Shown here: positions 29,375-57,935 of the stretch, one piece after another
Layout of the letters: every line of letters begins with the position of its first letter
How positions within the stretch are numbered: position 1 is the first letter of the stretch
Source of the DNA: a virus
Taxonomy: Duplodnaviria; Caudoviricetes
Reading direction: 5' to 3' (one strand)
Length of the DNA stretch: 64,000 nucleotides
Virus record (IMG/VR): IMGVR_UViG_3300033068_001067
Span: 2,312 to 66,311 of that record
Program-made: the position numbers and the translations under genes
The notes under the pieces: model-generated
What the model was told of the DNA's origin: nothing
The model's database searches: none
Seen by the model: only the letters and a program-made list of their open reading frames with translations

Positions 29375-29375
29375 T

Positions 29376-30074: not shown

Positions 30075-30760
30075 AATCAAAGCCTAAAATATCTAAAGAA
30101 TGCAAATGCGGTAATGTGTTTCATGTTCTTCCTTACAGAGAAGGGACAGCTTTTTATTGTAGTGCAAGGTGTAGACAAATTTATAGGGAGTATAAACCTA
30201 ATAGAGGGTCATTTAAGAGTGGGGCTGTCGAATATAAAAGAAGTAGAGCTAACGTACCTATAGTTTGCGGCATATACAAAATAACAAACCCTAATGGGGC
30301 TGTTTATATAGGCGGCTCACGGACTATTTACAGAAGATGGTTAAGGCATAGGGAAGCAAGAAAGAAAATAAAAATACATTTATCAATAAAGCAGTTCGGG
30401 TGGAAGGCACATGAATTTAAAATAATTCATGAACTACCAAAAGATGTAGATAACGATACACTAATAAGATATGAGCAACTTTACATGGACTTATATAGAG
30501 ATTGTGGCAGCAATATGTTAAACGTAAAGGATGCCGGCAGTAAAGCCAAATTCCCACAAGAATCAAAATCTTTAATGAAAGAATCTAATAAAAAGAAGTA
30601 TGCAGTTAAATACAATGGCAATGTGATTGAATTTATAGGGCTAAAACAGTTTTGTATAGATAACAATATTGCAGAAAAAAGCTTTTCAGATTTGATACAT
30701 GCGAATGGTCATTATCGCTCAAAAAATTATTATAAAGGTTATTCAAGATTAAACGATTAA
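30071..30760 (+). CDS. GIY-YIG homing endonuclease with N-terminal Cys zinc-finger
   Basis: CKCG...YCSARC; CGIYKITN...VYIGGS...R...E...N. Confidence 0.85.
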   Translation: MKSKPKISKECKCGNVFHVLPYREGTAFYCSARCRQIYREYKPNRGSFKSGAVEYKRSRANVPIVCGIYKITNPNGAVYIGGSRTIYRRWLRHREARKKIKIHLSIKQFGWKAHEFKIIHELPKDVDNDTLIRYEQLYMDLYRDCGSNMLNVKDAGSKAKFPQESKSLMKESNKKKYAVKYNGNVIEFIGLKQFCIDNNIAEKSFSDLIHANGHYRSKNYYKGYSRLND

Positions 30761-30764
30761 AACT

Positions 30765-31763
30765 ATGAAAAAAGCACTTGTATTAGGCGGGACAGGGACA
30801 ATTGGTCATCAGCTTTGCAGACGACTTAAATCAGAAGGTTTTTGGGTAAGGTGTGTTGATAGAAAACGCAATGAATATTCGGATACGGTATGTGATGAAT
30901 TGGTTATAGGCGATTTAAGGGATGCAGATTTTGTAAGCAAAGTAATGATTTCCCCTAGCCAAAAATCAATAAACGATAAAGTTAATTCCTTTGATGAAGT
31001 GTACGCATTAATGGCTGAAATGGGCGGGGCTAATTATGTATTTACAAAAGATAATGATGCTGAAATAATACACAATTCAGCATTGATGAATTTAAACGTT
31101 TGCAATTATGCGTCATTGATGCAAGTTAAAAAAATATTTTTTTCATCAAGTGCTTGTTGTTATAGTGAAAGTTTGCAAATGACGACAGATAATGCAGGGC
31201 TAAAAGAATCGGGGGCTTGGGTAGGTGGTAAGCCAGACAGCGTGTATGGGATAGAAAAATTATTTTCAGAACAAGTATATGATTCATTTAGAAGGAACAA
31301 AGGTTTAAATATAAGAGTAGCAAGATTCCATAATATTTTTTCAGAAGAAGGCTGTTGGAATAACGGCAGAGAAAAATTCCCTGCCGCTTGTTGTAGAAAA
31401 GTAGCGGAAGCCGCAGATGGGGAAGAAATAGAAATTATGGGGGATGGGTTGCAAACAAGGTCGTTTCTTTATTGTCAAGAAGCATTAGATGGGATAAGAA
31501 AATTAATGGATTCTGATTATCAATATCCAATTAATATAGGTAGTGATGAAATGATAAGTATTAACGACCTTGCTAAAATGGTTATTGAAATAAGTGGTAA
31601 AAAACTTACAATAAAAAATATAGAAAGCAATGCAGTTGGCGTAAGGGGCAGAAACAGTGACAACACTTTGATAAAAGAAGTATTAGGATGGTCGCCAACT
31701 CAACCGCTAAAAGTAGGTATGGAGAAATTGTATAAATGGGTAAAATCACAAACCAATCCTTAA
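30765..31763 (+). CDS. NAD-dependent epimerase, GDP-mannose 3,5-epimerase-like
   Basis: GGTGTIG Rossmann motif; YGIEK (YxxxK); GREKFPAACCRKVA; GDGLQTRSF; GVRGRNSDN. Confidence 0.85.
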   Translation: MKKALVLGGTGTIGHQLCRRLKSEGFWVRCVDRKRNEYSDTVCDELVIGDLRDADFVSKVMISPSQKSINDKVNSFDEVYALMAEMGGANYVFTKDNDAEIIHNSALMNLNVCNYASLMQVKKIFFSSSACCYSESLQMTTDNAGLKESGAWVGGKPDSVYGIEKLFSEQVYDSFRRNKGLNIRVARFHNIFSEEGCWNNGREKFPAACCRKVAEAADGEEIEIMGDGLQTRSFLYCQEALDGIRKLMDSDYQYPINIGSDEMISINDLAKMVIEISGKKLTIKNIESNAVGVRGRNSDNTLIKEVLGWSPTQPLKVGMEKLYKWVKSQTNP

Positions 31764-31765
31764 TT

Positions 31766-32389
31766 ATGGATAAAGCAGTAATAAAGGGCAAGGGAGATGT
31801 CGTTTTAAAATCTGGAGTTACAATAAATGAGTATGTAAAAGTGCATAGGTGGATTTCAAAAATGAAAGGGAAAGCATATAAGTGTGAAAATCAAAATTGT
31901 GATGGTTTGAGTGTTAATTATCATCATTCTTTAAAAAAAGGTAAAAGGTACGAAAAGGATGTAGAGAATTTTTGGATGTTATGTGTTAAGTGCCATAAAA
32001 AATATGATTGGAAAGACGAGTTTGCTAATCATGTAAGAGGCATGAAATTAAGCGATGAGACAAAAGCTAAACTTGCAGCAGCGAATTTAGGCAAAAAGGC
32101 TTCCGATGAAACTAAGCGCAAATTGTCGGAACGGTTTAGTGGTAGTAATAATCCTATGTACGGAGTTAGTATTTCTGGCGAAAAAAGCGCTTGGTGGGGT
32201 AGAAAGCACACTGAAAATTCAAAAATAAAGCAAGCAATTTCTTCAGCAAAAGTTTCAGAAGAAGTAGTTATCGAAATTCGTAGATTGGTAGACAGTGGTG
32301 TTCGACAAAAAGAAGTTGCAAAACAAGTTGGGCTAAGTAGGGCTAGTATTTGCAGAATTGTAAACAAAAAACGATATAAACAATGGTAG
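31766..32389 (+). CDS. HNH endonuclease with NUMOD3 and C-terminal HTH
   Basis: CENQNC...MLCVKCHKKYD; KLSDETKAKL and GRKHTENSK NUMOD3 repeats; VRQKEVAKQVG HTH. Confidence 0.8.
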   Translation: MDKAVIKGKGDVVLKSGVTINEYVKVHRWISKMKGKAYKCENQNCDGLSVNYHHSLKKGKRYEKDVENFWMLCVKCHKKYDWKDEFANHVRGMKLSDETKAKLAAANLGKKASDETKRKLSERFSGSNNPMYGVSISGEKSAWWGRKHTENSKIKQAISSAKVSEEVVIEIRRLVDSGVRQKEVAKQVGLSRASICRIVNKKRYKQW

Positions 32390-33144
32390 GGACAAGATTT
32401 TATGGGCGAATGGGCAATGTATTTTTCCAAGCGGCTCACTGCATAGCGTTTGCTCTAAGGAACAACGAAGATTTTTCTATGCCAAATAGAACAACAAATC
32501 CATTTTGGAATCCTTTGTACTTAGGTCACTTAGTTCATCCTAATTATATTCAAGGACGTGAAGATGTGCTTATTAACGAAAACGGGCATCAGTGGCAACC
32601 AATAGAGTACAAAGAAGAATGGAGAGGTAAACAAGTTGTATTAAATGGCTACTGGCAGTCCGAAAAATACTTCCTTGAATACAGAGACGAAATACTTTAC
32701 CTATTCCAATTCCCAAAAGAGCAATACGAAACCATATCTCTACATGCAAGGTTCGGTGATTATTTAACCGTACAAATGAATGGTAAAAAAAAGCATGTAA
32801 TAGTAGATGAAAGATACATACTTGAAGCGATTGAATTAGTGAAAAATAAAACAGGGATAAGTAACGTAAAAGTATTTTCAGACGACATACCACTATTTAA
32901 AGAAAAGTTTGCACATTTATATAACTTTGAATACAGCACTAATAAAAGCGAAGAAGCAGATATGAGAGAAATGAGTTGCTGTCATAGTTTTATAAATTCG
33001 AGCAGCACGTTTAGCTGGTGGTCTGCGTGGTTAAGTAGGAATCCCGACAAGGTTATAGTAACGCAAAAACATTGGTTTCACCCCGATGGGTGGATGGGGT
33101 TAGACACAAGCGATATTGTCCCTAATAGTTGGATAAAATTATAA
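32383..33144 (+). CDS. alpha-1,2-fucosyltransferase-like glycosyltransferase (GT11)
   Basis: GRMGNVFFQ; GYWQSEKYF; LHARFGDY; INSSSTFSWWSAWL. Confidence 0.88.
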   Translation: MVGTRFYGRMGNVFFQAAHCIAFALRNNEDFSMPNRTTNPFWNPLYLGHLVHPNYIQGREDVLINENGHQWQPIEYKEEWRGKQVVLNGYWQSEKYFLEYRDEILYLFQFPKEQYETISLHARFGDYLTVQMNGKKKHVIVDERYILEAIELVKNKTGISNVKVFSDDIPLFKEKFAHLYNFEYSTNKSEEADMREMSCCHSFINSSSTFSWWSAWLSRNPDKVIVTQKHWFHPDGWMGLDTSDIVPNSWIKL

Positions 33145-36679: not shown

Positions 36680-39067
36680 TTGGATAGCCAAACCAATTAC
36701 CCACCGCATAATATAGACCCTAGAAATAAGGGCTTCGCTTGGATTTTACAATACATCAAAGCAGCATGGACAGATAGTCAAGGTTACTTAGCAGGTAAAT
36801 CTTTGTTCTTTGGGCAAAGCAAATACGATGAAATCCGACAATATGCTATGGGTAAGCAAAGCATAAACAAGTACAAAAAGATTTTATTAGCGGATGAAAC
36901 AGACGACAAATCTTGGTTAAGTATTAGTTGGGATGTACCTTCTTTCCTTACAAAATTTAGAGAAATAGCAATAGCTAAACTTAATCAAAAGCAATTTGAT
37001 TTACAAGCCTATGCAGTTGACCCCTTAGCAAGAAGCGAAGAAGATGCTAAGTTTAACGAAATGAAGGTTAAGGTTTTAATGAGAGAACAAGCATTGGCAA
37101 TGCAAAGCGAGTTGGCAGACACCCCCGTATTAGCACCAACACAAGGCGAACCAGAAGATATGGAACAGTTGCTTATGCAAAAAGAATTTGGCTATAAGCA
37201 TGTAATGGGTATGGAAGCGGAGTTGGGTATTCAATTGGTTTTTGGACAAAATAACATAGAAGAAAAGAGAAAGCGAACTATTGAAAACCAAGTAGATTAT
37301 GGCATTGGCGGGTACACTACATGGATTGACCATAATGGCAACACTAAGTTTAGAGAATTGAACCCTAGAAATCTAGTGCTATCCTACTGCGAAAAGAACG
37401 ACTTTTCGGACTTAGTACATTGGGGTGAAGCAATAGAACTCCCCGTAGTAGATTTAGTGCCATACTTCGATAAAAAGCAGATGGATGATATTTGTGTTAA
37501 TGTAGCAGGTAAGTGGGGCAATCCTAGTACTTATAGAGCAGCACAAGGGGCAACAAACCCCGATTGGAGTAGATTTAAGGTATTAGTATTAGACTTTAAA
37601 TTCCTATCATGGAACGAAACGGTTTACAAAGACGAAGTAGATGGTAGGGGTAATACAAGGTTTGGAAAAACAAACTATGACGACAAGAAATACCTATCAG
37701 TTAATAAAAACGGGTTACTTGCAGAATACACAATGCCTACCGATGTAGAAACTACAAGTGGTGGTAGCCCAACAGCAAAATACATTTCTACCAACGTAAA
37801 GGTAGTTTACAAAGGCAAATGGCTAATTGGTACAGATTTAATGTACGATTGGGGTTTGCAAGAAAACATGTCAAGAAAGTCAAGCACATGGACTGATACC
37901 AACTTAGATATTCAGTTGTATGCTTGGAACTTTAATCAAATGCAATTTACAGGTATTACCGAAAGGCTAATCCCTTTTGAAGATAAAGCATGTTTGGCTT
38001 GGTTTAGGTTACAGAACATGGCAAACCGATTAATCCCTTACTTAATTAATATTGACTTAACGACAATAGAAAGTACAGGTTTTGGTAAAGGTGGTGCAAA
38101 CATGAAACCTGCCGAATTGATTGACTTCGTTTTTAGCACTTTTGTTGTGCCTTACCGTTCTACTGATTTACTAAGTAGCAACCCCAACTACAAACCCGTA
38201 ACAATTGAAGCAACAGGGCAACTAGCAGCCTTTGGGCAACTTTATGAGGAACTAGCCCACACCATTGAGATGATGCGTCAAGTTACAGGTCTAAATGAAG
38301 CTACTGATGCAAGTACGGTAAATGCTAAAACCTTAAATGGTGCAACACAAGCCATGATGGAAAGCACTAACAATGCTTTGTACTTAGTATCAAATGCTGA
38401 CAAACAATTAATGGTAAGATTGGCAGATAGTATAGTTACCAAAATACAAATAGCAGTAGGATTAGGTAAGGTAGAAGGCTACGCAAAAGCACTTGGTAGT
38501 GATACAGTAAATTTCATCAAAATAAACCCCGATATTTCTTTGTATGAGTTAGGTATTTTCATTGAAGATGCACCTACCCAACAACAAAGAGAAATGCTAT
38601 GGCAAGATATTAGCATCAAAGAATCACAAGGGCTATTAAGTATTGAAGATAAGGTAATGATAATGTCGGTTCGCAACTTGAAGCAAGCCGCAATGATGTT
38701 GGCATACAAGATTAAAAAGCGTAAAGAAGAACAGCAACAATTTGAACTACAAAAAATACAAGAGAATAATCAAGGGCAACAGCAAATGCTAATGACTGCG
38801 GAACAAATGAAGCAGCAAACTTTACAGATGCAAGCCCAATTAGATATTCAAAGAATAACCACAGAAAAGCAATGGGAATTTGAGATAGAGAAGATGAAGA
38901 AAATGATGGATTTTGAAGGTGAAACCGTACAAGCAGACGCAAGAACAATAGGGCATCAAATACAAGCAGATGCCAAAGTTTATGCAAGTCAAATAGCGGC
39001 AGAAGGTGGGCTAATAAAACAACAAATACAAAACGAAAAACCACAACCTAAGTCAAAAAGTAAATAA
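36680..39067 (+). CDS. portal protein
   Basis: 795 aa; YAMGKQSINKYK...ISWDVP...QLDAYAVDP-like start, MRQVTGLNEATDAS, Q-rich barrel-like C-terminus; precedes scaffold and capsid genes. Confidence 0.8.
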   Translation: MDSQTNYPPHNIDPRNKGFAWILQYIKAAWTDSQGYLAGKSLFFGQSKYDEIRQYAMGKQSINKYKKILLADETDDKSWLSISWDVPSFLTKFREIAIAKLNQKQFDLQAYAVDPLARSEEDAKFNEMKVKVLMREQALAMQSELADTPVLAPTQGEPEDMEQLLMQKEFGYKHVMGMEAELGIQLVFGQNNIEEKRKRTIENQVDYGIGGYTTWIDHNGNTKFRELNPRNLVLSYCEKNDFSDLVHWGEAIELPVVDLVPYFDKKQMDDICVNVAGKWGNPSTYRAAQGATNPDWSRFKVLVLDFKFLSWNETVYKDEVDGRGNTRFGKTNYDDKKYLSVNKNGLLAEYTMPTDVETTSGGSPTAKYISTNVKVVYKGKWLIGTDLMYDWGLQENMSRKSSTWTDTNLDIQLYAWNFNQMQFTGITERLIPFEDKACLAWFRLQNMANRLIPYLINIDLTTIESTGFGKGGANMKPAELIDFVFSTFVVPYRSTDLLSSNPNYKPVTIEATGQLAAFGQLYEELAHTIEMMRQVTGLNEATDASTVNAKTLNGATQAMMESTNNALYLVSNADKQLMVRLADSIVTKIQIAVGLGKVEGYAKALGSDTVNFIKINPDISLYELGIFIEDAPTQQQREMLWQDISIKESQGLLSIEDKVMIMSVRNLKQAAMMLAYKIKKRKEEQQQFELQKIQENNQGQQQMLMTAEQMKQQTLQMQAQLDIQRITTEKQWEFEIEKMKKMMDFEGETVQADARTIGHQIQADAKVYASQIAAEGGLIKQQIQNEKPQPKSKSK

Positions 39068-39102
39068 TTTAAGGTGTTTTTAATTTTTTAATCAGTTTTT
39101 AA

Positions 39103-39110
39103 TACATTTG
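39103..39110 (+). promoter_or_regulatory. Bacteroidota-type -7 box (TACATTTG)
   Basis: TAnnTTTG match upstream of the scaffold gene. Confidence 0.5.
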
Positions 39111-39129
39111 TTTAACCAAAAATAATTTT

Positions 39130-40296
39130 ATGTCAGAAACTATCCAAGTAAGGCAAACCACTTATTCTAATTTAGCGGCACAAAATGAAACCGAAACGCC
39201 AATAGAAACAACAGCCGTTGCACAAGAACAAGCAGCAACTACTGATGATAAATTAGGAGTGGTAGAAGTACCCGAAGTGATAGCAGAAACACAGACACAA
39301 GAACAAGCAGCCGAAACAACCACTACCGAAACAGAAACACAAGAAGATAACGAAGCAAGTGTAAGTTTCAACTATGAAGATTTCGGCACACAAGAACAAG
39401 CACAACCCGAACAGCAAGCACAGCCACAACAAGTTTCTTTAAAAGAACTTATTAAAAAAGCAAGTGCGGATGAAGTAAAAGAGTTATTAAAAGAAGTAGG
39501 TATTGAAGATTTTGCTTTAGAATTAAATGAGCATATCAAAAAAGGTGGTAAGCCGATTGATTACTTAAATGCAAAAGCAATAGATTGGGATGTAGTACCC
39601 GATACTGATATGGTTAAGGATAACTTGAAAAAAGAGTTCCCCAACTTAACAGAACAAGAAATAACAAAGCTGTACAACAAAAAATATAACCAATCAGACC
39701 TTGCGGATGAAGACGAAAAAGAAGATGGGTTATTGATGTTGAAAGCAGATGCTTACAAATTAAGACAACAAAAGAAGGCTGAACAAGCCCAATTTAAAAT
39801 AGCTGATGGTAAGGTGTTACAACAAGAGGTTACAGCATCCGACCCATTATCACAACAACAAGCCGAGCAACAAAGAAAACAATACGAAGCAGTCGTTGAT
39901 TTCTTTAAAAACCATGAAGCCACAAAAGCCGTAACAGAAAGCAAGAGAGTTGCTATTGATTTAGGCGAAAATGGCACATTTAATTTCAAGTTGGAGAAGC
40001 CCGAAATATTGCTAAATGCAGTACTCGATGCTAACACTTGGGCAAGAATCACAGCCGCAAATCCGGGAGAGCCTGATGCGTCTAAACTACAACCCGATGT
40101 AAAAAAACTGCAAAGATTAGTTCTTGCAGCCATCAACCCCAACTATGAAAAGGACTTGGTAAATTATGGTAAATCATTAGGTAAGAAAAGTTTTATAAAG
40201 GAACAGCAAAATGCACAAAGACCTTTAGGACAATCTGCCAATCAATCAACAGATAAGCCTTCGTTTGCAATTGGAGTTGGCGGTAGGTACAACTAA
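39130..40296 (+). CDS. capsid scaffolding protein (putative)
   Basis: Acidic E/Q/T-rich N-terminus; located between portal and MCP. Confidence 0.7.
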   Translation: MSETIQVRQTTYSNLAAQNETETPIETTAVAQEQAATTDDKLGVVEVPEVIAETQTQEQAAETTTTETETQEDNEASVSFNYEDFGTQEQAQPEQQAQPQQVSLKELIKKASADEVKELLKEVGIEDFALELNEHIKKGGKPIDYLNAKAIDWDVVPDTDMVKDNLKKEFPNLTEQEITKLYNKKYNQSDLADEDEKEDGLLMLKADAYKLRQQKKAEQAQFKIADGKVLQQEVTASDPLSQQQAEQQRKQYEAVVDFFKNHEATKAVTESKRVAIDLGENGTFNFKLEKPEILLNAVLDANTWARITAANPGEPDASKLQPDVKKLQRLVLAAINPNYEKDLVNYGKSLGKKSFIKEQQNAQRPLGQSANQSTDKPSFAIGVGGRYN

Positions 40297-49262: not shown

Positions 49263-49794
49263 GCGATACCAATTCCAACTTGCTTCTATACTCAATCAAT
49301 AATTCTCGCAAATCCGATACAGATAGCTTATTTATGGAGTGTGCCATTTCATCAACATACTCTAATGCTTCGGGGTGTTCTTTTTTTAGTCTATCCCTAA
49401 ATATTTCGGGGTGGGTCTCATGTTTTGAATTACATTTTGGGCATTGCACCCTCACTCCACCTTCATAATATCTGCTACCCATATCAGCCCTACTCCCTAC
49501 ATGCCCACATTGAGATTGCTTCCAATTCATAACTTCATCACAGGTATAACAACTAACTTCCCCCCTATTATTAGCATACTTAATTCTGATGTATTTTGAA
49601 AAAACTGCATCCAATTCATCCCTTAAATTAGCCCAACTTTCATCTGAAAAATCTCGTTCCATTCTCTTATCCGAAACCCTTTTAATAGGCTTATACCCTT
49701 TACTTGCACACATCTTGCATCTTCCCTTAGAGAAAGCGAAATCGTAATGCCCACAAGCTAACTGACGCTTCTTAGGTTTTATTGTTGAGTTCAT
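49246..49794 (-). CDS. ninG: NinG/Rap-like recombination endonuclease
   Basis: LDAVFSKYIR...CYTC...QCGH...QCPKCN. Confidence 0.8.
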   Translation of the reverse strand: MNSTIKPKKRQLACGHYDFAFSKGRCKMCASKGYKPIKRVSDKRMERDFSDESWANLRDELDAVFSKYIRIKYANNRGEVSCYTCDEVMNWKQSQCGHVGSRADMGSRYYEGGVRVQCPKCNSKHETHPEIFRDRLKKEHPEALEYVDEMAHSINKLSVSDLRELLIEYRSKLELVSLKLSQ

Positions 49795-50621
49795 AAACGG
49801 ATTTGATTAAGTGGTGACGGAGTTCTGCTGATTAAATTATGTGAAATGTGGGTATAAATTCGGGTCGTATTTAAGTTTTGATGACCGCATAGCTTTTGAA
49901 TTATTGAAATATCAGTTCCTTGTTCTAAAAGATGTGTCATAGTACAATGCCTAATTAAATGGGTATATACTCTTTTATTGATTTTTGCTTTCTCCGCTAG
50001 TTGCTTAATAACTTGACCTACACTTCTTTCTGAATATTGTAATTCATCCTTCCACCCATTTAGTACATACACTTTACTTTTATACTCCTTCCAATAATCT
50101 TCAAGCAATCCGATAACGGAACTACTTAGCATGACTTGCCTATCTCTTTTCCCCTTAGCTTGAATTACATTAATAATCATCCTACTTCTATCAATGTGTT
50201 CCCACTTCAAATTAATCAATTCTGAAACTCGCAAGCCGCAAGAATAAAGCAACCCTAAAATTACTCGATGTTTTTTATTGTCGCAAACATCAAACATTCT
50301 TTGTATCTCCCCAACTGATAAAACTATGGGTAATTTGTTCTCTTTTCGAGCATATTGAATGTATTTAAACTTTTGCTTTTGATTCATGCAAATGTCATAG
50401 AACTTTTTAATTGCACTATGGTAATTCCTTTGAGTATTAACCGTTGAAAATTTACACAAGAAATCTTTAATATCTTGTTCATTGATATTCTTTGGGTGGT
50501 CTTTATCCACTTTTGAGAAAAATACATCAATACATGAAGCATAATTATCAATAGTATTTTGACAGTAATTTCTACGTTTCATTTCTTGAATGAATCTACC
50601 CTTATGTTTACATATATTCAT
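49791..50621 (-). CDS. tyrosine recombinase (SAM-like N-domain + catalytic domain) adjacent to the cassette array
   Basis: LPIVLS; GLRVSE (R); AKGKRDR (K); HLIRH (HxxR); CGH (H); IYTH (Y); C-terminal SPL; no IntI-type ALERKY insertion. Confidence 0.93.
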   Translation of the reverse strand: MNICKHKGRFIQEMKRRNYCQNTIDNYASCIDVFFSKVDKDHPKNINEQDIKDFLCKFSTVNTQRNYHSAIKKFYDICMNQKQKFKYIQYARKENKLPIVLSVGEIQRMFDVCDNKKHRVILGLLYSCGLRVSELINLKWEHIDRSRMIINVIQAKGKRDRQVMLSSSVIGLLEDYWKEYKSKVYVLNGWKDELQYSERSVGQVIKQLAEKAKINKRVYTHLIRHCTMTHLLEQGTDISIIQKLCGHQNLNTTRIYTHISHNLISRTPSPLNQIRL

Positions 50622-51243
50622 AGTTTATAAATTTTAGTTTTTTTGGTTGGTTCATAACTTCTTTATAAAAGCACTTCAACGCAACTATGTGGGCATTCCT
50701 CGTATTTTTGTTTTTTATTAGTCCTATGTAATGCCTAATTTCATTTTGATTAATTTCTTTTGGCGACTTTTTTTTACCTTCAAATTCAGAAATAAACCTT
50801 TTAATGTATGAAATAAAATTTCTTTTGCTATTCTTTGAGTAAGAACTTTTCTCAAGGCAAAAACGAAATTTTGCTATGTAAATAGAGTTTTTCTTTACTC
50901 TGTAATAATTATTACCCCCACCTCCTAAATTCCCATTTAGTAAATTACTTATGCCTAATTTACTTATCCATTCCTTTTCTTTAAAACTTGCTTGTTCGGT
51001 TGGTACAGTTTCTAATACTTCAATTATGGGGAGTAACCCAACTATTGCTAATTCACGTATCCATAAATTTTTCTTTGAGTTAGTGCTATTTCTTTTTGAT
51101 ATATGTAAATAAAGCCTTTGCTTTATTGGCAAATACGTCTTGCCTATATACCTTATTGATTTAGTCAACGGGCATGAAAGCGAATAAATATAGGTTGTAG
51201 TTATATTCTGAATTAAATTAACTAACCGTTCAGAAGTAGGCAT
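50608..51243 (-). CDS. GIY-YIG nuclease fused to an integrase N-terminal (SAM-like) domain
   Basis: YIYSL...IRYIGKT...R...E...N; C-terminal half aligns by eye with residues ~5-90 of the neighbouring recombinase. Confidence 0.8.
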   Translation of the reverse strand: MPTSERLVNLIQNITTTYIYSLSCPLTKSIRYIGKTYLPIKQRLYLHISKRNSTNSKKNLWIRELAIVGLLPIIEVLETVPTEQASFKEKEWISKLGISNLLNGNLGGGGNNYYRVKKNSIYIAKFRFCLEKSSYSKNSKRNFISYIKRFISEFEGKKKSPKEINQNEIRHYIGLIKNKNTRNAHIVALKCFYKEVMNQPKKLKFINYEYM

Positions 51244-51272: not shown

Positions 51273-51301
51273 TAACGTGCGGGACATATTTTATGTTAAA
51301 T
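51273..51301 (+). other. candidate attI-like primary site (first GTT at 51295)
   Basis: Recombinase-proximal GTT with no attC hairpin before it; ACATA/TATGT mini-palindrome. Confidence 0.35.
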
Positions 51302-51340
51302 CGAAAGCCCTCCACAAAAGCCATCCCTTCGCTTTCGATT

Positions 51341-51434
51341 TAACGAGTAGGATTTTTTCCGTTTACGAAAGCCCTTCGGGCCTTCGTTTAACAATGGATT
51401 TTATCCATTGAAACGGAAAAAATCCTACTCGTTA
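51341..51434. repeat. attC-like site 0: perfect 24-bp inverted repeat with two internal hairpins
   Basis: TAACGAGTAGGATTTTTTCCGTTT / AAACGGAAAAAATCCTACTCGTTA. Confidence 0.8.
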
Positions 51435-51443
51435 CCTGCAAGG

Positions 51444-51686
51444 CTAACTGCATCGGTTAGCGACAGCCTTCCAACAATTACAATCACTACACATTTCATT
51501 TCTATTTTCAGTTTGACAAAATTTCAAATCCACAGTTAAGTAAATTAATTCCTTTGTCAATTCGTGGTATTTTTCGTAGGCTCTTTTGATTTCCATATTC
51601 TTAAAATCAACTAATGGAAAATCTGTTTTTAGTTTCTCAATTTTACTTTCTATCGTTTTAAGCCTTCTTTTTTTCTTTTGTAACAT
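51444..51686 (-). CDS. cassette 1 cargo: hypothetical protein
   Basis: Single ORF between GTT 51431 and AAC 51729. Confidence 0.65.
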   Translation of the reverse strand: MLQKKKRRLKTIESKIEKLKTDFPLVDFKNMEIKRAYEKYHELTKELIYLTVDLKFCQTENRNEMCSDCNCWKAVANRCS

Positions 51687-51724
51687 CGTTTTTAAATTAA
51701 GTTCCTACTGATAAACCGCCCAGC

Positions 51725-51817
51725 AGGTAACAGCGGTTTGGCAAAAGCCGCCATAAACATTCTGCAAACTTTAAACTTTTCGTTAGGCAGCCTTCGCCAA
51801 GCCGCAAAACGTTAGGT
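51725..51817 (+). repeat. attC-like site 1
   Basis: AAC-A-GCGGTTTGGC...GCCAAGCCGC-AAAAC-GTT. Confidence 0.88.
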
Positions 51818-51835
51818 GCAATGCCAGCGGACACC

Positions 51836-52549
51836 CTAAAACATTCGGAGTTGGCTGACAAAATCTTTAAAACGCTTTTCTTGTGCTTCATAATAATCTT
51901 TATCTATTTCAAATCCAGTAAAATCAAACCCACCTTTATTACAGGCAATTCTACTGCTACCACTTCCAACGTGAGTATCTAAAATCAAATCACCTTCTTT
52001 GGCATAATTTGATAATAACCAATCATACAATGCCACAGGCTTTTGAGTTGGGTGTATTCTTTGCTCTTTGTCTTTCATATTGTGTTGCAACATTCCGTGC
52101 CAAGTAATATTTACAAAGTCTATTTTTTGCAACCAACTCAACCAAGCAAGTTCGCCAGTGCTATAAGTTGGCATTGTTACGTTTTTATGCCAATAAAGCA
52201 TACCGCCAACTAATCCAAAGAAATTTGCACCCCACACTATTTGTTTTTTAGATACTCTTTTTAACTCATTAAAATAATCTTCGTTTGGCGTTTCGTTATC
52301 CCAATTTGTTTTTTTATAGGTATTAATTTTAGCCAAAGAAGTTTTTTCGTGCCTATCACTATTTTTGCCATTGTTTTTAATATCGGCATTTATGCCATAA
52401 GGCGGGTCAACTATTGCAAGGTCAAAGTAATTATCAGAAAAGCGTTTTAAACCCTCTACACAATCCTCATTATACACCACAGAAGGCACTGCACCTAACA
52501 CGGTATTGGCAAAATTGCCGTTCTGTTTTTCAATTAAACTTTCGTCCAT
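51836..52549 (-). CDS. cassette 2 cargo: orphan N4-C/N6-A DNA methyltransferase (beta class)
   Basis: DLAIVDPPYG motif IV; HPTQKP; LDTHVGSGSS motif I; start lies inside attC2. Confidence 0.92.
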   Translation of the reverse strand: MDESLIEKQNGNFANTVLGAVPSVVYNEDCVEGLKRFSDNYFDLAIVDPPYGINADIKNNGKNSDRHEKTSLAKINTYKKTNWDNETPNEDYFNELKRVSKKQIVWGANFFGLVGGMLYWHKNVTMPTYSTGELAWLSWLQKIDFVNITWHGMLQHNMKDKEQRIHPTQKPVALYDWLLSNYAKEGDLILDTHVGSGSSRIACNKGGFDFTGFEIDKDYYEAQEKRFKDFVSQLRMF

Positions 52550-52616
52550 AATTTCAACTTTTGTTTTTCAATTTAGCTTTCGGTTCGGCAATTTCGCCAA
52601 TACCCATACGTTGTGT
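52493..52616 (+). repeat. attC-like site 2
   Basis: AAC-AC-GGTATTGGCAAAATTGCCG...CGGCAATTTCGCCAATACC-CATAC-GTT. Confidence 0.88.
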
Positions 52617-52625
52617 GCAAGGCTT

Positions 52626-52859
52626 CTACTCGACAATCCCTAAACTGTCAATGTACTTCTTGGCATAATCGCAACACATTTTGACAGAGCCTTGTTTATC
52701 ATCTTTAAAATCATAGGCAACTTCATCTATTGCTTTATGAATTTCAGCGTGTAACTCACACATTGCTTTTAAGTTTTCAAGAATGTTATAATCTTTTGAA
52801 GCGTCACCTTTTGGACGAATATCGCCAATCAACTTTTTAACTACATCATAATTTGTCAT
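52626..52859 (-). CDS. cassette 3 cargo: hypothetical protein
   Basis: ORF within cassette; start set at MTNY. Confidence 0.65.
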   Translation of the reverse strand: MTNYDVVKKLIGDIRPKGDASKDYNILENLKAMCELHAEIHKAIDEVAYDFKDDKQGSVKMCCDYAKKYIDSLGIVE

Positions 52860-52882
52860 CTTTCTAATTTTGCCCGCCCTGC

Positions 52883-53014
52883 ACACAACAAAAGGTTTTG
52901 CGTTATGTGGGCGTAATGTTATAGGCTCATCATTTTATCTCAAATCAACACAGTATGTATGTGGGCAGACGAGCCTTGAATACCCACACAAACGCAAAGC
53001 CTTGAACGTTAGCG
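52883..53014 (+). repeat. attC-like site 3
   Basis: AAC-AA-AAGGTTTTGCGTT...AACGCAAAGCCTT-GAAC-GTT. Confidence 0.85.
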
Positions 53015-53248
53015 GTCAGTACTACCAGTATTCAAGTTCAACAGTCTTTGACCAAGTTTTTTATGGTTCTCCCATTCTTCATCTGACAAATTACTTAAAC
53101 AGTCAGGCTTTTCACCTTGTATGGTTTTTAGTATTGACAATTCAGTTTCATTGTTAAGCTCTTTTAACATTGAATGTGACTTATCTAAAACCATATCATT
53201 TAAGGTATTTAGATTGTCAAATGCGGAGTGATACTTTTTGTCTTGCAT
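53009..53248 (-). CDS. cassette 4 cargo: hypothetical protein
   Basis: ORF whose TAA stop overlaps the GTT box. Confidence 0.65.
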   Translation of the reverse strand: MQDKKYHSAFDNLNTLNDMVLDKSHSMLKELNNETELSILKTIQGEKPDCLSNLSDEEWENHKKLGQRLLNLNTGSTDR

Positions 53249-53297
53249 AATTGTATATTTTAATTTTAATGTTTCTATTTTTTTACTCGTGCCGAAC

Positions 53298-53409
53298 CGC
53301 TAACAAACGGTTTGGCAAAATACGGGGTGAAGTGCAGAGTCGAACGATTATAAAGCCAAGCATAAGTAACAGTCATTGCCCGTACTTCGCCAAGCCGCAA
53401 ACGTTGGCT
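53298..53409 (+). repeat. attC-like site 4
   Basis: AAC-AAA-CGGTTTGGCAAAATACGGG...CCCGTACTTCGCCAAGCCG-CAAAC-GTT. Confidence 0.88.
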
Positions 53410-53415
53410 GCAATA

Positions 53416-53637
53416 CTACAACTTTTCAATTTCGGCTTTGACTTCTATCCAAAAAGTTAAGCGTTGTTCCTCAAAAGGACTTGACGCATCGCAATCGTTT
53501 ATCAATTCATGAACTGTCATTAAAGCACATTGTTTTGACATTTCAAATCCTTCGCCTCTTAATCTTACATTTTCAAACGATATTATTTTATCGTTTATTT
53601 TTTTAAGTAATTCTACAGCTTTTGCTTGCGGTGACAT
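53416..53637 (-). CDS. cassette 5 cargo: hypothetical protein (MSPQAKAVEL...FWIEVKAEIEKL type)
   Basis: ORF within cassette; start set at MSPQ. Confidence 0.7.
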   Translation of the reverse strand: MSPQAKAVELLKKINDKIISFENVRLRGEGFEMSKQCALMTVHELINDCDASSPFEEQRLTFWIEVKAEIEKL

Positions 53638-53677
53638 ATTTTTTATTTTGACAGTTACTAATCTTTTACCGTACAGC

Positions 53678-53774
53678 AGCCAACAAAAGTATTGCTGCAA
53701 GTAGGGCTTGACCAGCATTGCTCAACAGTAGTTTTCCAAATTCCCTACCTGACAGCAATACTCGGTCGTTAGCT
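53678..53774 (+). repeat. attC-like site 5
   Basis: AAC-AAA-AGTATTGCTG...CAGCAATACT-CGGTC-GTT. Confidence 0.88.
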
Positions 53775-53960
53775 GCTACTATTACCAGCCTTTACAGTTT
53801 CGGAATTAACAAGTATAAGTGTTAAGTCTAACGATTCAATATATCTTGTTTTTACCTTGCCCCTTCTTATCCAGTTGCTTAAAACTTGCCTTGATATATT
53901 TTTCTGCTTAGTGTATTGCCACATGGTAGCCCATTTGTCAGTATCAATTTTAACTACCAT
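53769..53960 (-). CDS. cassette 6 cargo A: small HTH (excisionase-like) protein
   Basis: QYTKQKNISRQVLSNWIRRGKV HTH pattern; stop overlaps the GTT box. Confidence 0.6.
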   Translation of the reverse strand: MVVKIDTDKWATMWQYTKQKNISRQVLSNWIRRGKVKTRYIESLDLTLILVNSETVKAGNSSS

Positions 53961-54078
53961 TTTTTATGTTTTAGATTAAATATTTCATCTTGTGATTCAC
54001 GAATATTGCCCATAAGTTGAATTATCAGCCATAATAAAAAACAATTTACAATTAATGAAATAATAAGTATTGTAATCA

Positions 54079-54309
54079 TTATAAGTATTTTACAAGTTTT
54101 AATTCTCCGTTTATTTCTTTTACCCACTCATAACCATCAACATTTTCGTCTTTCCATGTTTTAGCGTTTACCATGAAGTATAAACCTTCTTCATTCTGAT
54201 TTTTCACAAGATTTATCACTTTACCACGCTGACCATGTAGTTTGTAAGCAACTGCACTATTTACTTCGTTTACTTTTTCTACTTTGTAATTGTTGATTTG
54301 CTGTGTCAT
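54079..54309 (-). CDS. cassette 6 cargo B: hypothetical protein
   Basis: ORF directly downstream of a promoter. Confidence 0.65.
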   Translation of the reverse strand: MTQQINNYKVEKVNEVNSAVAYKLHGQRGKVINLVKNQNEEGLYFMVNAKTWKDENVDGYEWVKEINGELKLVKYL

Positions 54310-54325
54310 AATTTGAATGTTTATG

Positions 54326-54356
54326 CAAATATAATATTGTTTACATTGCAAACAAA
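54326..54356 (-). promoter_or_regulatory. Bacteroidota-type promoter inside cassette 6 (TTTG-N19-TATATTTG)
   Basis: Minus-strand -33 box at 54353-54356 and -7 box at 54326-54333. Confidence 0.6.
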
Positions 54357-54389
54357 ATATTTTTAAACTTTTTTATTGCACATAGCAGC

Positions 54390-54485
54390 AGCTAACATCG
54401 TATTGGCAAAACAAGGGCTTGACAAATAAATCCAAGCACCAGTTTTTCAAATTCCCTTGCTTCGCCAATACGTCCAACGTTAGGT
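54390..54485 (+). repeat. attC-like site 6
   Basis: AAC-AT-CGTATTGGCAAAACAAGGG...CCCTTGCTTCGCCAATACG-TCCAAC-GTT. Confidence 0.88.
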
Positions 54486-54491
54486 GCAATG

Positions 54492-54740
54492 CTAAAGACC
54501 GTTAATCAATTTCATTATCGTTTGACGACCTTCTTCTTTAGCTTTTTTAATATCCTCAATAGTTTTGTCTTGAATATCAAAAACGTTTTTGTTTGCTACA
54601 TAACCATCACCTGCTTGTGGTAAATGGTCGTGGCATATCCATTTGAACTCTCTACACGTTTTTTCACGTTCATCGTAGTATTCGTCTAACTTAGTCAAAG
54701 CTAAATTCAGAATGTCTTTTTCTTTATTCGTAAGTTTCAT
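54492..54740 (-). CDS. cassette 7 cargo: hypothetical protein
   Basis: ORF within cassette; start set at MKLT. Confidence 0.65.
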   Translation of the reverse strand: MKLTNKEKDILNLALTKLDEYYDEREKTCREFKWICHDHLPQAGDGYVANKNVFDIQDKTIEDIKKAKEEGRQTIMKLINGL

Positions 54741-54767
54741 ATTTTTAAAATTAGGGAGAAGCACTGC

Positions 54768-54899
54768 ACCTAACAAGGTATTGCCAAAAGCAGGACATTC
54801 TCGGTTAATTAATCATTTGTACTTCTATGGGGCATTTGTGCAAGGTTTAGACTTTTTGCTTCTAAATCCCTGCCTTCGGCAATACCCGAACCGTTATGC
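54768..54899 (+). repeat. attC-like site 7
   Basis: AAC-AA-GGTATTGCCAAAAGCAGG...CCTGCCTTCGGCAATACC-CGAACC-GTT. Confidence 0.88.
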
Positions 54900-54911
54900 C
54901 TCATTGCTACC

Positions 54912-55232
54912 TTACTGCTCCGAAACAGGTTTTTTGCCAAGCATATTCATCACTATACTTGATTTGTTTGGATAGTTCTTAGCAAGGTGAAAAAAGAATT
55001 GGTCAATATTTACACCTTCTTCTATTCTACATTTTGAAAGCACATCATATAAATTAGTAGTTACATTTCTCCCATCAACATCGGGGTAAATACAAGTAGT
55101 GCAAAAATCAAAATCTGCATACTGAAATTCTGCAAACATTGGTATTTGTTCGGCTTTACATATCTCTATGATTTTTGCCATTAGTGGAGCAATTTGCTCA
55201 TCGTAAATCTGTTCTTTATTTTTCATTTTCAA
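54912..55232 (-). CDS. cassette 8 cargo: conserved phage hypothetical protein
   Basis: NKEQIYDEQIAPLMAKIIEICK...IPM start; fills the cassette. Confidence 0.7.
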   Translation of the reverse strand: MKMKNKEQIYDEQIAPLMAKIIEICKAEQIPMFAEFQYADFDFCTTCIYPDVDGRNVTTNLYDVLSKCRIEEGVNIDQFFFHLAKNYPNKSSIVMNMLGKKPVSEQ

Positions 55233-55264
55233 ATTAATTTAATCGTTAATAAACCGCAACGAAG

Positions 55265-55350
55265 GCATAACAGCGTATAAAGTAAACCGCCAATACCTAC
55301 CCACGAAGCCAACGCAATTGTCGGCTTCCCTTATACGCAAACCGTTAGGC
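55265..55350 (+). repeat. attC-like site 8
   Basis: AAC-A-GCGTATAA...TTATACGC-AAACC-GTT. Confidence 0.82.
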
Positions 55351-55356
55351 GATATG

Positions 55357-56046
55357 CTAAAACAACCGCACTTGCGAAACGAAATCATCGTATCTTTTGC
55401 ACGATTTATTAAAATATTCTTCGTCAATTTCACAACCAACAAAATTTAGTTTATACTTATTAGCAGAAATCCTTGAACTTCCAGAACCTAAATGTGTATC
55501 TAAAACCTTTGAGCCTTCTTCTAATTTTGAATAATCAAAACAAAAATCATATAATTCAATAGGTTTTTGGGTTGGGTGAAACCTTTTTAAATCAGTGCTT
55601 TGTTTTCGTATTATCTTACTTGGTTTGTCAAATGACGTCCATACTAATTCACAAGCAGAAAAAGTAGGCATAGATTGTACTTTGTCCCAGCAAATGAAAC
55701 CTCTTGTATTTGGTAAATATTCTAAAAAGTAATTAGCCCCAAAAATAATTTGGTCTTTTGAAACTCTAAATAATTCTAACCAATACTCTTCTTGCGGTAA
55801 AATATCCCACTTTGAACTATCTCTATAAAGTGTTGCAAAAGGACTGTTTTTATGTTTGCCACCTCTTTCAGTTAGTTTTTCGCCCAATCCATAAGGCGGG
55901 TCGCAAATTGCTAAATCAAAGTATTTATCGGGGTAATGTTTCATAAGTTGAATATTATCCATTAAATAAACCTCCGAAGAAGCACAATCGCCTAACACGT
56001 GTTTGGAGCAATGCGGGGATTTGTCTTTAATTTTATTATCAGTCAT
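55357..56046 (-). CDS. cassette 9 cargo: second orphan N4-C/N6-A DNA methyltransferase (beta class)
   Basis: DLAICDPPYG; HPTQKP; LDTHLGSGSS; start lies inside attC9. Confidence 0.92.
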   Translation of the reverse strand: MTDNKIKDKSPHCSKHVLGDCASSEVYLMDNIQLMKHYPDKYFDLAICDPPYGLGEKLTERGGKHKNSPFATLYRDSSKWDILPQEEYWLELFRVSKDQIIFGANYFLEYLPNTRGFICWDKVQSMPTFSACELVWTSFDKPSKIIRKQSTDLKRFHPTQKPIELYDFCFDYSKLEEGSKVLDTHLGSGSSRISANKYKLNFVGCEIDEEYFNKSCKRYDDFVSQVRLF

Positions 56047-56123
56047 TGTTTTTAAGTTTAGTTTTTAATTGAAAAATTGGTGCATTTTTAGCCCGCACTG
56101 CACCAAGCACGAGAACGTTGGCT
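55990..56123 (+). repeat. attC-like site 9
   Basis: AAC-A-CGTGTTTGGAGCAATGCGGG...CCCGCACTGCACCAAGCACG-AGAAC-GTT. Confidence 0.88.
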
Positions 56124-56124
56124 G

Positions 56125-56379
56125 CTATACTACAACCCCATTCATTTTAAGTTCCGCCCTTAAACGTATTAATTCACGATTGACTTTAAGCAGTTCTTGC
56201 TCATATTCATTACGCTGAATTTTGACACGTTTACACTCTTTTTTTATTTCTTCATTAACGCCATTGGAAAATTCAACCATTACTTCCATTACTTTTTTTT
56301 CGCCAAATTCACCATAAGCGGAAAATCCTTCTTCGTTGTAAAAAACACCCCATCTTTTTAAGAAATTTAATGCACTCAT
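56125..56379 (-). CDS. cassette 10 cargo: hypothetical coiled-coil protein
   Basis: ORF fills the cassette. Confidence 0.65.
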   Translation of the reverse strand: MSALNFLKRWGVFYNEEGFSAYGEFGEKKVMEVMVEFSNGVNEEIKKECKRVKIQRNEYEQELLKVNRELIRLRAELKMNGVVV

Positions 56380-56421
56380 ATTTTATATTTTGATATTTTA
56401 AAATTTATCTTACCGTACAGC

Positions 56422-56508
56422 AGCCAACAATGTGTTTTACGCAAGGGCGGACACAGTACGCAGGTTGAAATTGCTTTATTGCCCCTGCGTAAAGCACCAC
56501 CGTTAGCC
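56422..56508 (+). repeat. attC-like site 10
   Basis: AAC-AAT-GTGTTTTACGCAAGGGC...GCCCCTGCGTAAAGCAC-CACC-GTT. Confidence 0.88.
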
Positions 56509-56514
56509 GTAATG

Positions 56515-57138
56515 CTATGATACACCACGAGCAAAATCTATTGCCATTTGTTTTGCATCTTCAATAGTTTTAGCAACCCATTTTCCTTTACCCCATTTCG
56601 TAGGATATTCAGAAAATACACCACTTATTTGACCTCTCATTTTTTCGTTTGGAGTTTTATCATCATAAGTATAACGTACCCAAACCCCTAATTTACCATC
56701 TTGTTCACCTTCTTCGGCAACAGGATTTAATTTATGTGTTTCATCCATATCTGTATCACCCAAAAATCGCAAACAATCTTCTAAAAATTCTTCTTTGTTG
56801 GATGGCTCATAATGGCAATGCCCTTTCTTACATTCACTTCCTATACCAAAGCCAAATATTGCTCTATGAGACCAACCGTACCACTTTTGTTCTATCGGGT
56901 TAAACCCTATACAACTTGTTGTTGGTTCGCCATATCCATCTTGTATTTGTTCAGTAATACCTCTTTTAAATAAAAACTCTAAGTTTTTTTCTGAACCTAC
57001 TCTACCTAAATAAGAACCATCTACTTTTGAGTAGTATATTTTACCTGCATCATCAGGTATAGTTGAATCACCAATTATTGCAATTGAGTTTATAAACTGT
57101 TGCAATTTTTTAGACACTTGTTTTTTTGTTTTAAACAT
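56515..57138 (-). CDS. cassette 11 cargo: conserved phage hypothetical protein (207 aa)
   Basis: GFNPIEQKWYGWSHRAIFGFGIG...AKTIEDAKQMAIDFARGVS. Confidence 0.75.
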   Translation of the reverse strand: MFKTKKQVSKKLQQFINSIAIIGDSTIPDDAGKIYYSKVDGSYLGRVGSEKNLEFLFKRGITEQIQDGYGEPTTSCIGFNPIEQKWYGWSHRAIFGFGIGSECKKGHCHYEPSNKEEFLEDCLRFLGDTDMDETHKLNPVAEEGEQDGKLGVWVRYTYDDKTPNEKMRGQISGVFSEYPTKWGKGKWVAKTIEDAKQMAIDFARGVS

Positions 57139-57181
57139 ATACTTTGATTTTTAAATGATTTTGAATTTTATAAAGCACTAC

Positions 57182-57236
57182 GGCTAACAGCGGTTTGGCG
57201 ACATTAAAACGACCGCCAAGCCGCAAAACGTTGAGC
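57182..57236 (+). repeat. attC-like site 11 (terminal, shortest)
   Basis: Arms identical to site 1: TAACAGCGGTTTGGC / CGCCAAGCCGCAAAACGTT. Confidence 0.9.
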
Positions 57237-57253
57237 AATATTCTTAACGATAG

Positions 57254-57469
57254 CTAATCCCATATTGCACTAAATTTATCCCAGCCTGTGTAGTTCTCTT
57301 TTGGTTCTTTAAATCCGTATTGCTTCATGGTTTCAGACTTGTCTTTTGAGTTTTGAGCATCTTTTATGGCATTGTGATAGTTTGTTTCAGCTACCCAAAT
57401 TAAACCAATAGTTAATATGGCAAAGAATATACATAAGCCTTGTACAAATAGTTTTAGTAGTTGTTTCAT
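57254..57469 (-). CDS. small membrane protein
   Basis: One N-terminal TM helix. Confidence 0.65.
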   Translation of the reverse strand: MKQLLKLFVQGLCIFFAILTIGLIWVAETNYHNAIKDAQNSKDKSETMKQYGFKEPKENYTGWDKFSAIWD

Positions 57470-57475
57470 GGTTGA

Positions 57476-57781
57476 TTAAGATAAATTGTTGGTTAATTGT
57501 AACGCATGGGCGGTGCTTAGTTTTTGCACCCTTTCTAGCCTATCAAAGCAGTCATAGTACCATTGCATTATACGGGAGTGAATCTTACTATACCGTTCTA
57601 TTCTTTTAGTGAAATCACTCTCTCTGTATATCAATTTAATGGTAGCGAAAGGGTCTTTTGTTGCATGGTATAGATTAAGGTCGCTAACTGCTTCGTCCTG
57701 CCTATTCTTAGCCCTTATTGCTAAATCTAGTATATCAATACATCTTTCATGTAGCTTTAACTGTGCGGTTTCTCTGCCCAT
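57476..57781 (-). CDS. hypothetical early protein
   Basis: ORF; start set at MGRE after the AAAGACAAAATG leader. Confidence 0.6.
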   Translation of the reverse strand: MGRETAQLKLHERCIDILDLAIRAKNRQDEAVSDLNLYHATKDPFATIKLIYRESDFTKRIERYSKIHSRIMQWYYDCFDRLERVQKLSTAHALQLTNNLS

Positions 57782-57935
57782 TTTGTCTTTGGTTTTTTTG
57801 GTTACGAAAATATAAGATAAAGAACTGCAATAAACGCTAACCATCCCACTATTTCATGCAGCCAATTATTCATTCTAGGGTCGTTATCGGGGGCATTGTA
57901 TCTGTCTATTTGGTCTGAAATTACTTTTGCCATAA

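Follow-up and report, generated by a model that had tools for sequence, protein, structure and literature searches.

Introduction

Integron recombination is the textbook case of DNA shape being read over sequence, with strand choice credited to extrahelical bases held by a special integrase domain. In integrons the attC site recombines as its folded bottom strand, which is cut within AAC, after the second A (PMC7439510). Phages such as Polaribacter phage P12002L can also carry attC clusters that lack an integrase (CALINs), and for one P12002L site IntI1 was reported to recombine one strand but not its complement (Qi et al. 2023, PMC9892861). That study used integron search tools and treated the sites as ordinary attC of bacterial origin; it described no dedicated phage recombinase, extended ends or wobble. 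Here we analyse a cassette array that lies beside a tyrosine recombinase gene in a Caudoviricetes virus record (IMG/VR IMGVR_UViG_3300033068_001067). The stretch analysed, referred to as the window, is 64 kb (positions 2,312 to 66,311) out of the 66.3-kb record and has a G+C content of about 35%. Each unit of the array consists of cargo on the - strand and an imperfect hairpin with AAC at its start and GTT at its end. The two ends of each cassette are complementary, with one fixed G·T wobble at position 11, and this wobble most likely marks the strand of a folded site that is cut by the Xer-like recombinase. A literature search returned no description of a dedicated phage recombinase with such arrays, of extended ends, or of wobble in attC stems.

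Results

Cassette ends form a stem with one fixed wobble

In all 11 cassettes of the window, the 24 nt following each GTT were set against the 24 nt preceding the next AAC, the latter taken as their reverse complement. The end arms were complementary at positions 1-9 or 1-10, and again at positions 12-14 or 12-15, in 11/11 cassettes. At position 11 every cassette had, on the + strand, an A on the left facing a C on the right, which is G·T on the - strand. One extra right-arm nucleotide was needed in cassettes 4, 8 and 9, and cassettes 1 and 5 showed a second mismatch at position 10, A opposite A, on which the original prediction was silent. An A followed AAC and a C preceded GTT in 11/11 sites, and A was present at +15 in 10/11. 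Given one random mismatch per cassette (12 stem positions x 12 base combinations), the chance of ten more cassettes repeating the first is about 1e-21. The original prediction, made from the sequence of the window, had described extended self-complementary ends, an invariant A.C at position 11 (G.T on the other strand), a 1-nt bulge in three cassettes and sites reading AAC-A...C-GTT, and all of these were borne out. The pairing of about 13-15 nt that it reported is real and is corrected here to a 15-bp stem with a sharp end, pairing being at background past position 15.

On the + strand, cassette 1 spans 51431-51731 (arms 51431-51445 and 51717-51731; A 51441, C 51721) and cassette 2 spans 51811-52499 (arms 51811-51825 and 52485-52499; A 51821, C 52489). 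They are followed by cassette 3 at 52610-52889 (arms 52610-52624 and 52875-52889; A 52620, C 52879), cassette 4 at 53008-53304 (arms 53008-53022 and 53289-53304, the latter with the extra nucleotide; A 53018, C 53293) and cassette 5 at 53403-53684 (arms 53403-53417 and 53670-53684; A 53413, C 53674). Cassette 6, with several small open reading frames (ORFs), lies at 53768-54396 (arms 53768-53782 and 54382-54396; A 53778, C 54386), cassette 7 at 54479-54774 (arms 54479-54493 and 54760-54774; A 54489, C 54764) and cassette 8 at 54893-55271 (arms 54893-54907 and 55256-55271, again one nucleotide longer on the right; A 54903, C 55260). Cassette 9 covers 55344-55996 (arms 55344-55358 and 55981-55996, also with an extra right-arm nucleotide; A 55354, C 55985), cassette 10 covers 56117-56428 (arms 56117-56131 and 56414-56428; A 56127, C 56418) and cassette 11 covers 56502-57188 (arms 56502-56516 and 57174-57188; A 56512, C 57178). 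The identified cargo comprises two N6/N4 DNA methyltransferases, encoded on the - strand of cassettes 2 and 9, and one Tad6-family Thoeris inhibitor, encoded on the - strand of cassette 11.

The AAC...GTT hairpin sites each belong to the cassette on their left and are assigned here to the - strand, which folds better and is the probable exchanged strand. Sites 1-6 lie at 51729-51813, 52497-52612, 52887-53010, 53302-53405, 53682-53770 and 54394-54481, and sites 7-11 at 54772-54895, 55269-55346, 55994-56119, 56426-56504 and 57186-57232. The cargo stop codon was often found at left-arm positions 14-16 (53416-53418 in the window, and in many related cassettes), so that the gene end is packed against the stem. 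Past the stem, left arms tended to TA-C/A and the reverse complement of the opposite arm tended to GG.

The wobble is kept while neighbouring pairs covary

Sites in loci with related recombinases were found by a script from the interior hairpin between AAC and GTT alone. The survey set held 112 unique cassettes from 47 sources (46 loci and the window) with at least 5/6 matches at positions 4-9; positions 12-14 were not used in selection. Pairs were counted by script on the joined circular form, which is not a contiguous reference. Own end pairs were perfect at positions 4-9 in 94 unique cases, compared to 1.2 expected from random pairings. Positions 12-14 were complementary in 92-95% of the 112 cassettes, with all four pair types at each; complementarity dropped to 78% at position 15 and to 22-38% over positions 16-22. 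The outer stem, of 15 bp, is sharply bounded and kept by compensating changes, with one fixed odd pair within it.

That odd pair, A/G when the left arm is set against the reverse complement of the right, was present in 105/112 cassettes. Six of the seven exceptions were without any outer stem and the seventh was a 34-nt gene-less palindrome. Position 10 was A/T in 22/112. A second scan was started from a divergent locus, L144, with a recombinase 50% identical to that of the window, and added loci with recombinases 48% and 38% identical to that of L144. About 14 further cassettes, among them some from these loci and from a Saprospiraceae metagenome-assembled genome contig, obeyed the same rule. 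Overall, the wobble was kept in more than 120 unrelated cassettes of related phages. Next to the triplets, T preceded AAC in 100/112 and A or G followed GTT in 103/112; positions further out ignored the Y/R rule of classical sites.

The original prediction had proposed aligning the ends of homologous arrays as a check on position 11, and in that alignment the odd pair did not fall at a random position. Because it is near-invariant in every cassette with an outer stem while neighbouring positions covary freely, these comparisons support selection on the pair. It could instead be an accident without function, inherited from a common ancestral site or produced at a mutational hotspot, and all the sites probably do share one ancestor. 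However, the neighbours have turned over with compensating changes while the pair stayed fixed, in loci with recombinases as little as 38% identical, and an accident is very hard to credit.

Three fixed wobbles favour one strand

The - strand folded better than the + strand in 107/112 sites (-26.1 vs -22.1 kcal/mol). In the - strand minimum-energy folds, G·T pairs recurred at +11/+12 (97 sites), at -1/-2 beside the triplets (104 sites) and at -15/-16, about 15 nt inside (87 sites). On the + strand all three fixed odd pairs are A·C mismatches. Position 11, which the original prediction had singled out, is indeed fixed and is one of three such wobbles; the AAC-A...C-GTT reading is the second of them, beside the triplets. 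In addition, arm spacers differed by 2-4 nt in 104/112 sites, giving a one-sided bulge. Changing position 11 to a Watson-Crick pair in silico stabilised both strands and reduced the strand difference from 4.0 to 2.8 kcal/mol.

These folds might suggest that the wobbles act through stability only, raising the stability of the - strand hairpin above that of its + strand counterpart and hence how often it forms, with no protein reading them. The mean advantage of 4 kcal/mol and the fact that all three odd pairs favour one and the same strand agree with this. However, a bias of this kind could sit anywhere in the stem, yet wobbles elsewhere numbered about 25 in about 1200 pairs compared to 105/112 at position 11. 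A Watson-Crick pair at position 11 would stabilise the probable active strand by 3.5 kcal/mol and is never used, and position 11 contributes just 1.2 kcal/mol of asymmetry. We therefore regard stability as the sole cause as unlikely.

Two other arrangements were considered and rejected. In a zipper arrangement the mismatch would unzip the outer 4 bp of the wrong strand, but the partition function kept these 4 bp paired on both strands. An exact dyad symmetry of the outer and inner wobbles was also dropped: T lies 8 nt upstream of AA in the outer element (AAC) vs 7 nt upstream of the conserved AA in the inner one, and the symmetry is only approximate.

The full stem belongs to the cassette circle

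A cassette's own ends matched at 10.1 of 11 variable positions, compared to 4.3 of 11 for neighbouring ends on either side of an array site, and own-end folds were more stable than array folds in 111/112 cassettes. The full stem would therefore exist only in the cassette circle. The original prediction had placed the pairing in the excised circle, and this comparison of ends upholds it.

The same numbers bear on a possible role in RNA, in which the hairpins in cargo mRNA would signal its processing, stability or translation, the wobble being kept as a G·U pair. G·U is normal in RNA, and the folded strand is the coding strand: cargo was on the - strand, read toward the recombinase, in 11/11 window cassettes and on the corresponding strand in 93/112 of the family. 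Some ORFs also begin within a site (52549 and 56046). However, the outer stem would pair ends 200-1400 nt apart in a transcript, and with only 4.3/11 matches between neighbouring ends across a site, the covariation of own ends makes sense for the joined circle only. We consider a role in RNA improbable.

Cassette boundaries were read from blocks shared between loci. A 287-bp block was 100% identical between loci L112 and L114, had unrelated flanks and carried the same 6-nt GTT-containing word at both ends; it took in the hairpin on its right and not the hairpin on its left. In a systematic search, blocks running from left GTT to right GTT were found as 4-5 independent events, and no block running from AAC to AAC was found. 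By these GTT-to-GTT blocks, crossover falls in the GTT on the right, and a cassette carries its site at the end away from the recombinase. The opposite orientation, in which the left site travels and the + strand is cut, had been considered because the + strand has the longer spacer on its 3' arm. It was rejected, as every informative block was GTT-to-GTT.

Tyrosine recombinases cut each strand at the 5' edge of the spacer. Taken together with this polarity, boundaries in the right-hand GTT would put the cut on the - strand, so that the exchanged strand is probably the cargo-coding strand and position 11 would be a G·T wobble on it. The T of this wobble would then lie on the cleaved arm, always as the tenth nucleotide 5' of the cut. 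The extra-nucleotide bulge near position 10 fell on the presumed uncleaved arm in 19/20 cases and was a T in 17/20; its place on that arm would therefore keep the distance from T11 to the cut constant.

Several observations on the array and on public reads concern exchange of parts. Cassettes 5 (53403-53684) and 10 (56117-56428) have near-identical end arms, differing at left-arm position 10 only, and differ in cargo and sites; metagenome contigs join the right arm and site of cassette 3 to other cargo. Cassette "shells" and cargo can therefore reassort. Four studies, covering metagenomes of fish, viral, river and wastewater origin, yielded the interior of the site right of cassette 2 (52493-52606) as a separate, very deep contig (depth 31-193, 99% identity), so that one site sequence is common to many contexts; the methyltransferase ORF starting at 52549 also has its first 17 codons there. 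Other short contigs assembled from public reads of the same four kinds of metagenome held single sites and cassettes. Among these short contigs there was no trustworthy circle junction or excision joint, the joints listed having short sides of 20-34 nt.

The recombinase and a neighbouring nuclease-like gene

The left three quarters of the window carry long + strand genes, and from about 49.2 kb on every gene is on the - strand. The recombinase gene (49791-50621, - strand) encodes 276 amino acids of an Xer/IntI-like tyrosine recombinase (Pfam Phage_integrase and SAM_4) without the integron-integrase insertion. Its closest solved structure was VchIntIA (2a3v), the Vibrio integron integrase, to which it aligned in two pieces. 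The break lies at residues 171/199 of the query and 175/245 of the chain; about 42 residues are missing there, at the place of the extra domain of IntI. Scores against the integron-integrase models were 166 bits for TIGR02249 (cut-off 265) and 86 for PRK15417 (cut-off 435), and the protein was also under the curated cut-offs of the XerA, XerC and XerD models. None of 14 control genomes (0/14) was above the integron-integrase model family cut-off. By these matches the enzyme is a relative of IntI and XerA that lacks the insertion of about 42 amino acids.

About 150 relatives of the recombinase were found at 50-76% identity on viral and metagenome contigs. Two relatives, at 68-70% identity, were on contigs binned to Ginsengibacter sp. 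and a Saprospiraceae bacterium (L158 and L159), either of which could be a prophage or a mis-binned phage contig. The binning of these contigs points to Bacteroidota hosts.

Between the array and the recombinase gene, and overlapping the latter upstream, lies an accessory ORF of 211 amino acids (50608-51243, - strand). Domain matches gave a GIY-YIG nuclease domain at residues 1-126 (27.3 bits, cut-off 22.6) and, at residues 126-200, a SAM_4 domain that is a copy of the recombinase N-terminal SAM-like domain. Relatives were found in 50/152 related loci by tblastn, many of the loci being truncated. One may speculate that the product is a structure-specific nuclease that aids resolution of a one-strand exchange.

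This gene gives some ground for a different view of position 11, in which the left arm carries A:T there and the right arm G:C so that a duplex-binding protein, either the recombinase or the GIY-YIG protein, can tell one cassette end from the other. Each base is invariant on its own arm, and a protein with a copied recombinase DNA-binding domain is encoded beside the array. However, such end marking leaves the complementarity of the other 13 positions unexplained, and does not account for three odd pairs that are all transitions giving G·T on one strand. The accessory gene, moreover, was present in just those 50 of 152 loci, many of them truncated. We give end marking little credence.

The array head and the array end

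The array head, read from the sequence and detected by the site script, holds two palindromes, a gene-less one of 50 nt (51295-51344) and a perfectly symmetric AAC...GTT palindrome (51342-51433). Both (51295-51433) are without the position-11 and the +1/-1 asymmetry and lack all three strand-asymmetric pairs, and so form an internal contrast to the 11 cassette sites. They might be an attI, a terminator or an empty cassette. Locus L148 holds a similar gene-less unit of 34 nt.

The array ends with a GTT arm (57230-57244, + strand) that has A at position 11 and, by arm comparison, no partner arm further right. Genes past this point (57254 onwards) had no relatives among the related loci. An attI or empty integration site was sought in the right flank (57233-57900); this flank and its ORFs had no relatives in the fetched loci, and an attI could not be defined from it.

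Discussion

A proposed folded site marked by a wobble

The stem, its covariation, the invariance of position 11, the strand asymmetry and the cassette boundaries were read directly from the survey; recombination as a hairpin, the cleaved strand and a read-out by the enzyme we infer from them. In this explanation the recombination site would be a single strand in folded form, with each complementary end supplying one half of its outer (R) arm. Excision as a circle would join the cassette's two ends, and the joined ends together with the travelling hairpin site would form one long hairpin composed, in order, of the 15-bp outer stem, the AAC/GTT triplets, the one-sided bulge of about 2-4 nt and the inner stem. 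Crossover would occur in the GTT at the right end of the site, with the enzyme cutting the strand that runs 5' to 3' from the arm into the spacer. This would be the - strand, cut 5'-AA/C, and the T of the position-11 G·T would sit on the cleaved arm about one helical turn from the cut. A perfect stem would be alike on both strands, and only imperfections would tell them apart; transitions would be the mildest way to strand specificity. The recombinase, which lacks the domain that grips extrahelical bases, may recognise the correct strand and register from the wobble and from the T that is often added or mispaired beside it at position 10, these serving as a mark of shape or as a hinge. We hold this explanation as a whole with moderate confidence.

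The original prediction had suggested that the A.C mismatch is a selected signal for strand discrimination or for recognition in the excised circle. The pair does appear to be selected and does break strand symmetry. On the probable exchanged strand, however, it would be a G·T wobble, with the A·C likely on the unused strand, and discrimination by stability is weak, as the energy effect is small. Because position 11 accounts for so little of the strand bias, protein recognition or a hinge is more likely there than stability alone. A stabler pair is never used, the position never moves and position 10 is the sole other place where an irregularity is tolerated, which argues that its role is geometric, perhaps that of a read-out, hinge or flipped base. 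A more specific form of this idea, that the G·T and the adjacent extra or mismatched T make up a base-flipping or hinge element gripped by the recombinase one helical turn from the cut, is put forward tentatively and may well be wrong.

A number of results weigh against a wobble that marks the cut strand. Of the 4.0 kcal/mol between the strands, position 11 supplies only about 1.2, and the outer 4 bp remained paired on both strands (0.84-0.90 vs 0.90-0.97, DNA energy model); unless its shape is what is recognised, this pair alone would discriminate weakly. The one-sided bulge breaks the symmetry more strongly and might suffice by itself. The wobble position is constant across recombinase clades, with no covariation of enzyme and site, and two cassettes of phage P12002L have A/T, not A/G, at positions 10-11. 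Folding, the cleaved strand and the protein contact all belong to the inferred part of the explanation.

Cassette movement raises a further difficulty. In one wastewater run the Tad6 cassette (56501-57189) was about 98-99% identical from GTT to AAC on contigs with flanks unlike those of the window on both sides, and another site replaced the window's short 47-nt site. A simple one-crossover model, in which the right-hand site always travels with its cassette, does not explain these contigs. The methyltransferase cassette common to the window and locus L086, which kept just 15 nt of its site, is likewise unexplained by a single crossover. Sites and cargo can therefore also reassort in ways beyond that model, possibly because the other strand is exchanged now and then or because homologous exchange takes place in the conserved arms.

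Implications

The phage array would follow the same overall logic as integron recombination without the special domain and without the extrahelical bases, using fixed wobble pairs instead. If the wobble does act as a flipping or hinge element, a plain Xer-like enzyme would have a second, independent way of picking a strand that does not need the integron-integrase domain. The exchanged strand would then also be the messenger strand, one sequence serving both recombination and expression. A single invariant and easily mutated pair offers a clean experimental handle on the choice of strand and register. The cargo of DNA methyltransferases and a Tad6-family Thoeris inhibitor is anti-defence in kind, and the array therefore bears on the trade of counter-defence genes among Bacteroidota phages. 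The pattern GTT, 7 free pairs, A/G at position 11 and 4 more pairs can serve as a search key for metagenomes.

Comparison with known systems

Xer/dif sites are duplexes of 28-30 bp with two 11-bp arms and a 6-8 bp spacer. In the phage sites, by contrast, the sequence left of GTT is not an inverted copy of the right arm (as judged by eye), and the matching arms lie 46-153 nt apart across the hairpin. Another related system is the CTX phage attP(+) hairpin, reportedly recombined by XerCD (Val et al. 2005). There the substrate of the Xer-type enzyme is a single DNA strand folded to resemble a duplex core site, stem imperfections fix the strand and the arm that is cut, and one strand exchange is followed by replication. 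It differs in being a single integration site for the whole phage genome, served by host enzymes and with no cassette array.

The cultured and published phage P12002L (NC_028924; L157) has cassettes at 29240-32500 and 37260-39250. Its methyltransferase genes and Mom-like gene all lie on one strand, with AAC...GTT hairpins between them, and no recombinase is annotated. End complementarity was 15-25 nt, with an irregularity at positions 10-11 as in the window. Among seven cassette-like intervals, four had A/G at position 11, some with an extra T, and one was without end complementarity. Judged from these ends, P12002L belongs to the same site family as the window.

In working, the integron is another close parallel. 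In both systems imperfect hairpin sites with AAC and GTT bound the cassettes, crossover is placed in GTT, and the site lies at the integrase-distal end of the cassette, the outer box being completed in the circle by the start of that same cassette. Both have the recombinase gene beside the head of the array and favour one strand, with AAC-A...C-GTT on the top strand. The stems differ: the phage outer stem is 15 bp with a fixed G·T, whereas the attC R box is about 7 bp, and the phage sites keep TAAC/GTTA only, not the 7-nt RYYYAAC/GTTRRRY core as it is given in the literature, from which the classical side of this comparison was taken. The phage sites also lack the two single extrahelical bases of the inner box (usually G and T, on the bottom strand) and have a one-sided bulge of about 2-4 nt and fixed wobbles instead, while the recombinase lacks the IntI-specific domain that binds those bases. 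Integron cargo is promoterless, in sense orientation and read from a promoter at the integrase end, whereas the phage cargo is antisense to the top strand of the site (11/11 in the window and 93/112 in the family), so that the exchanged strand would be the coding strand; the system is, in addition, carried by phages. For the integron rule that the folded bottom strand alone recombines, with resolution by replication, the phage sites offer indirect support through strand-biased folding and the polarity of the enzyme. The phage array is therefore integron-like in its working and lacks several of the features that define integrons, which makes it a variant of the integron theme and not a member of the class.

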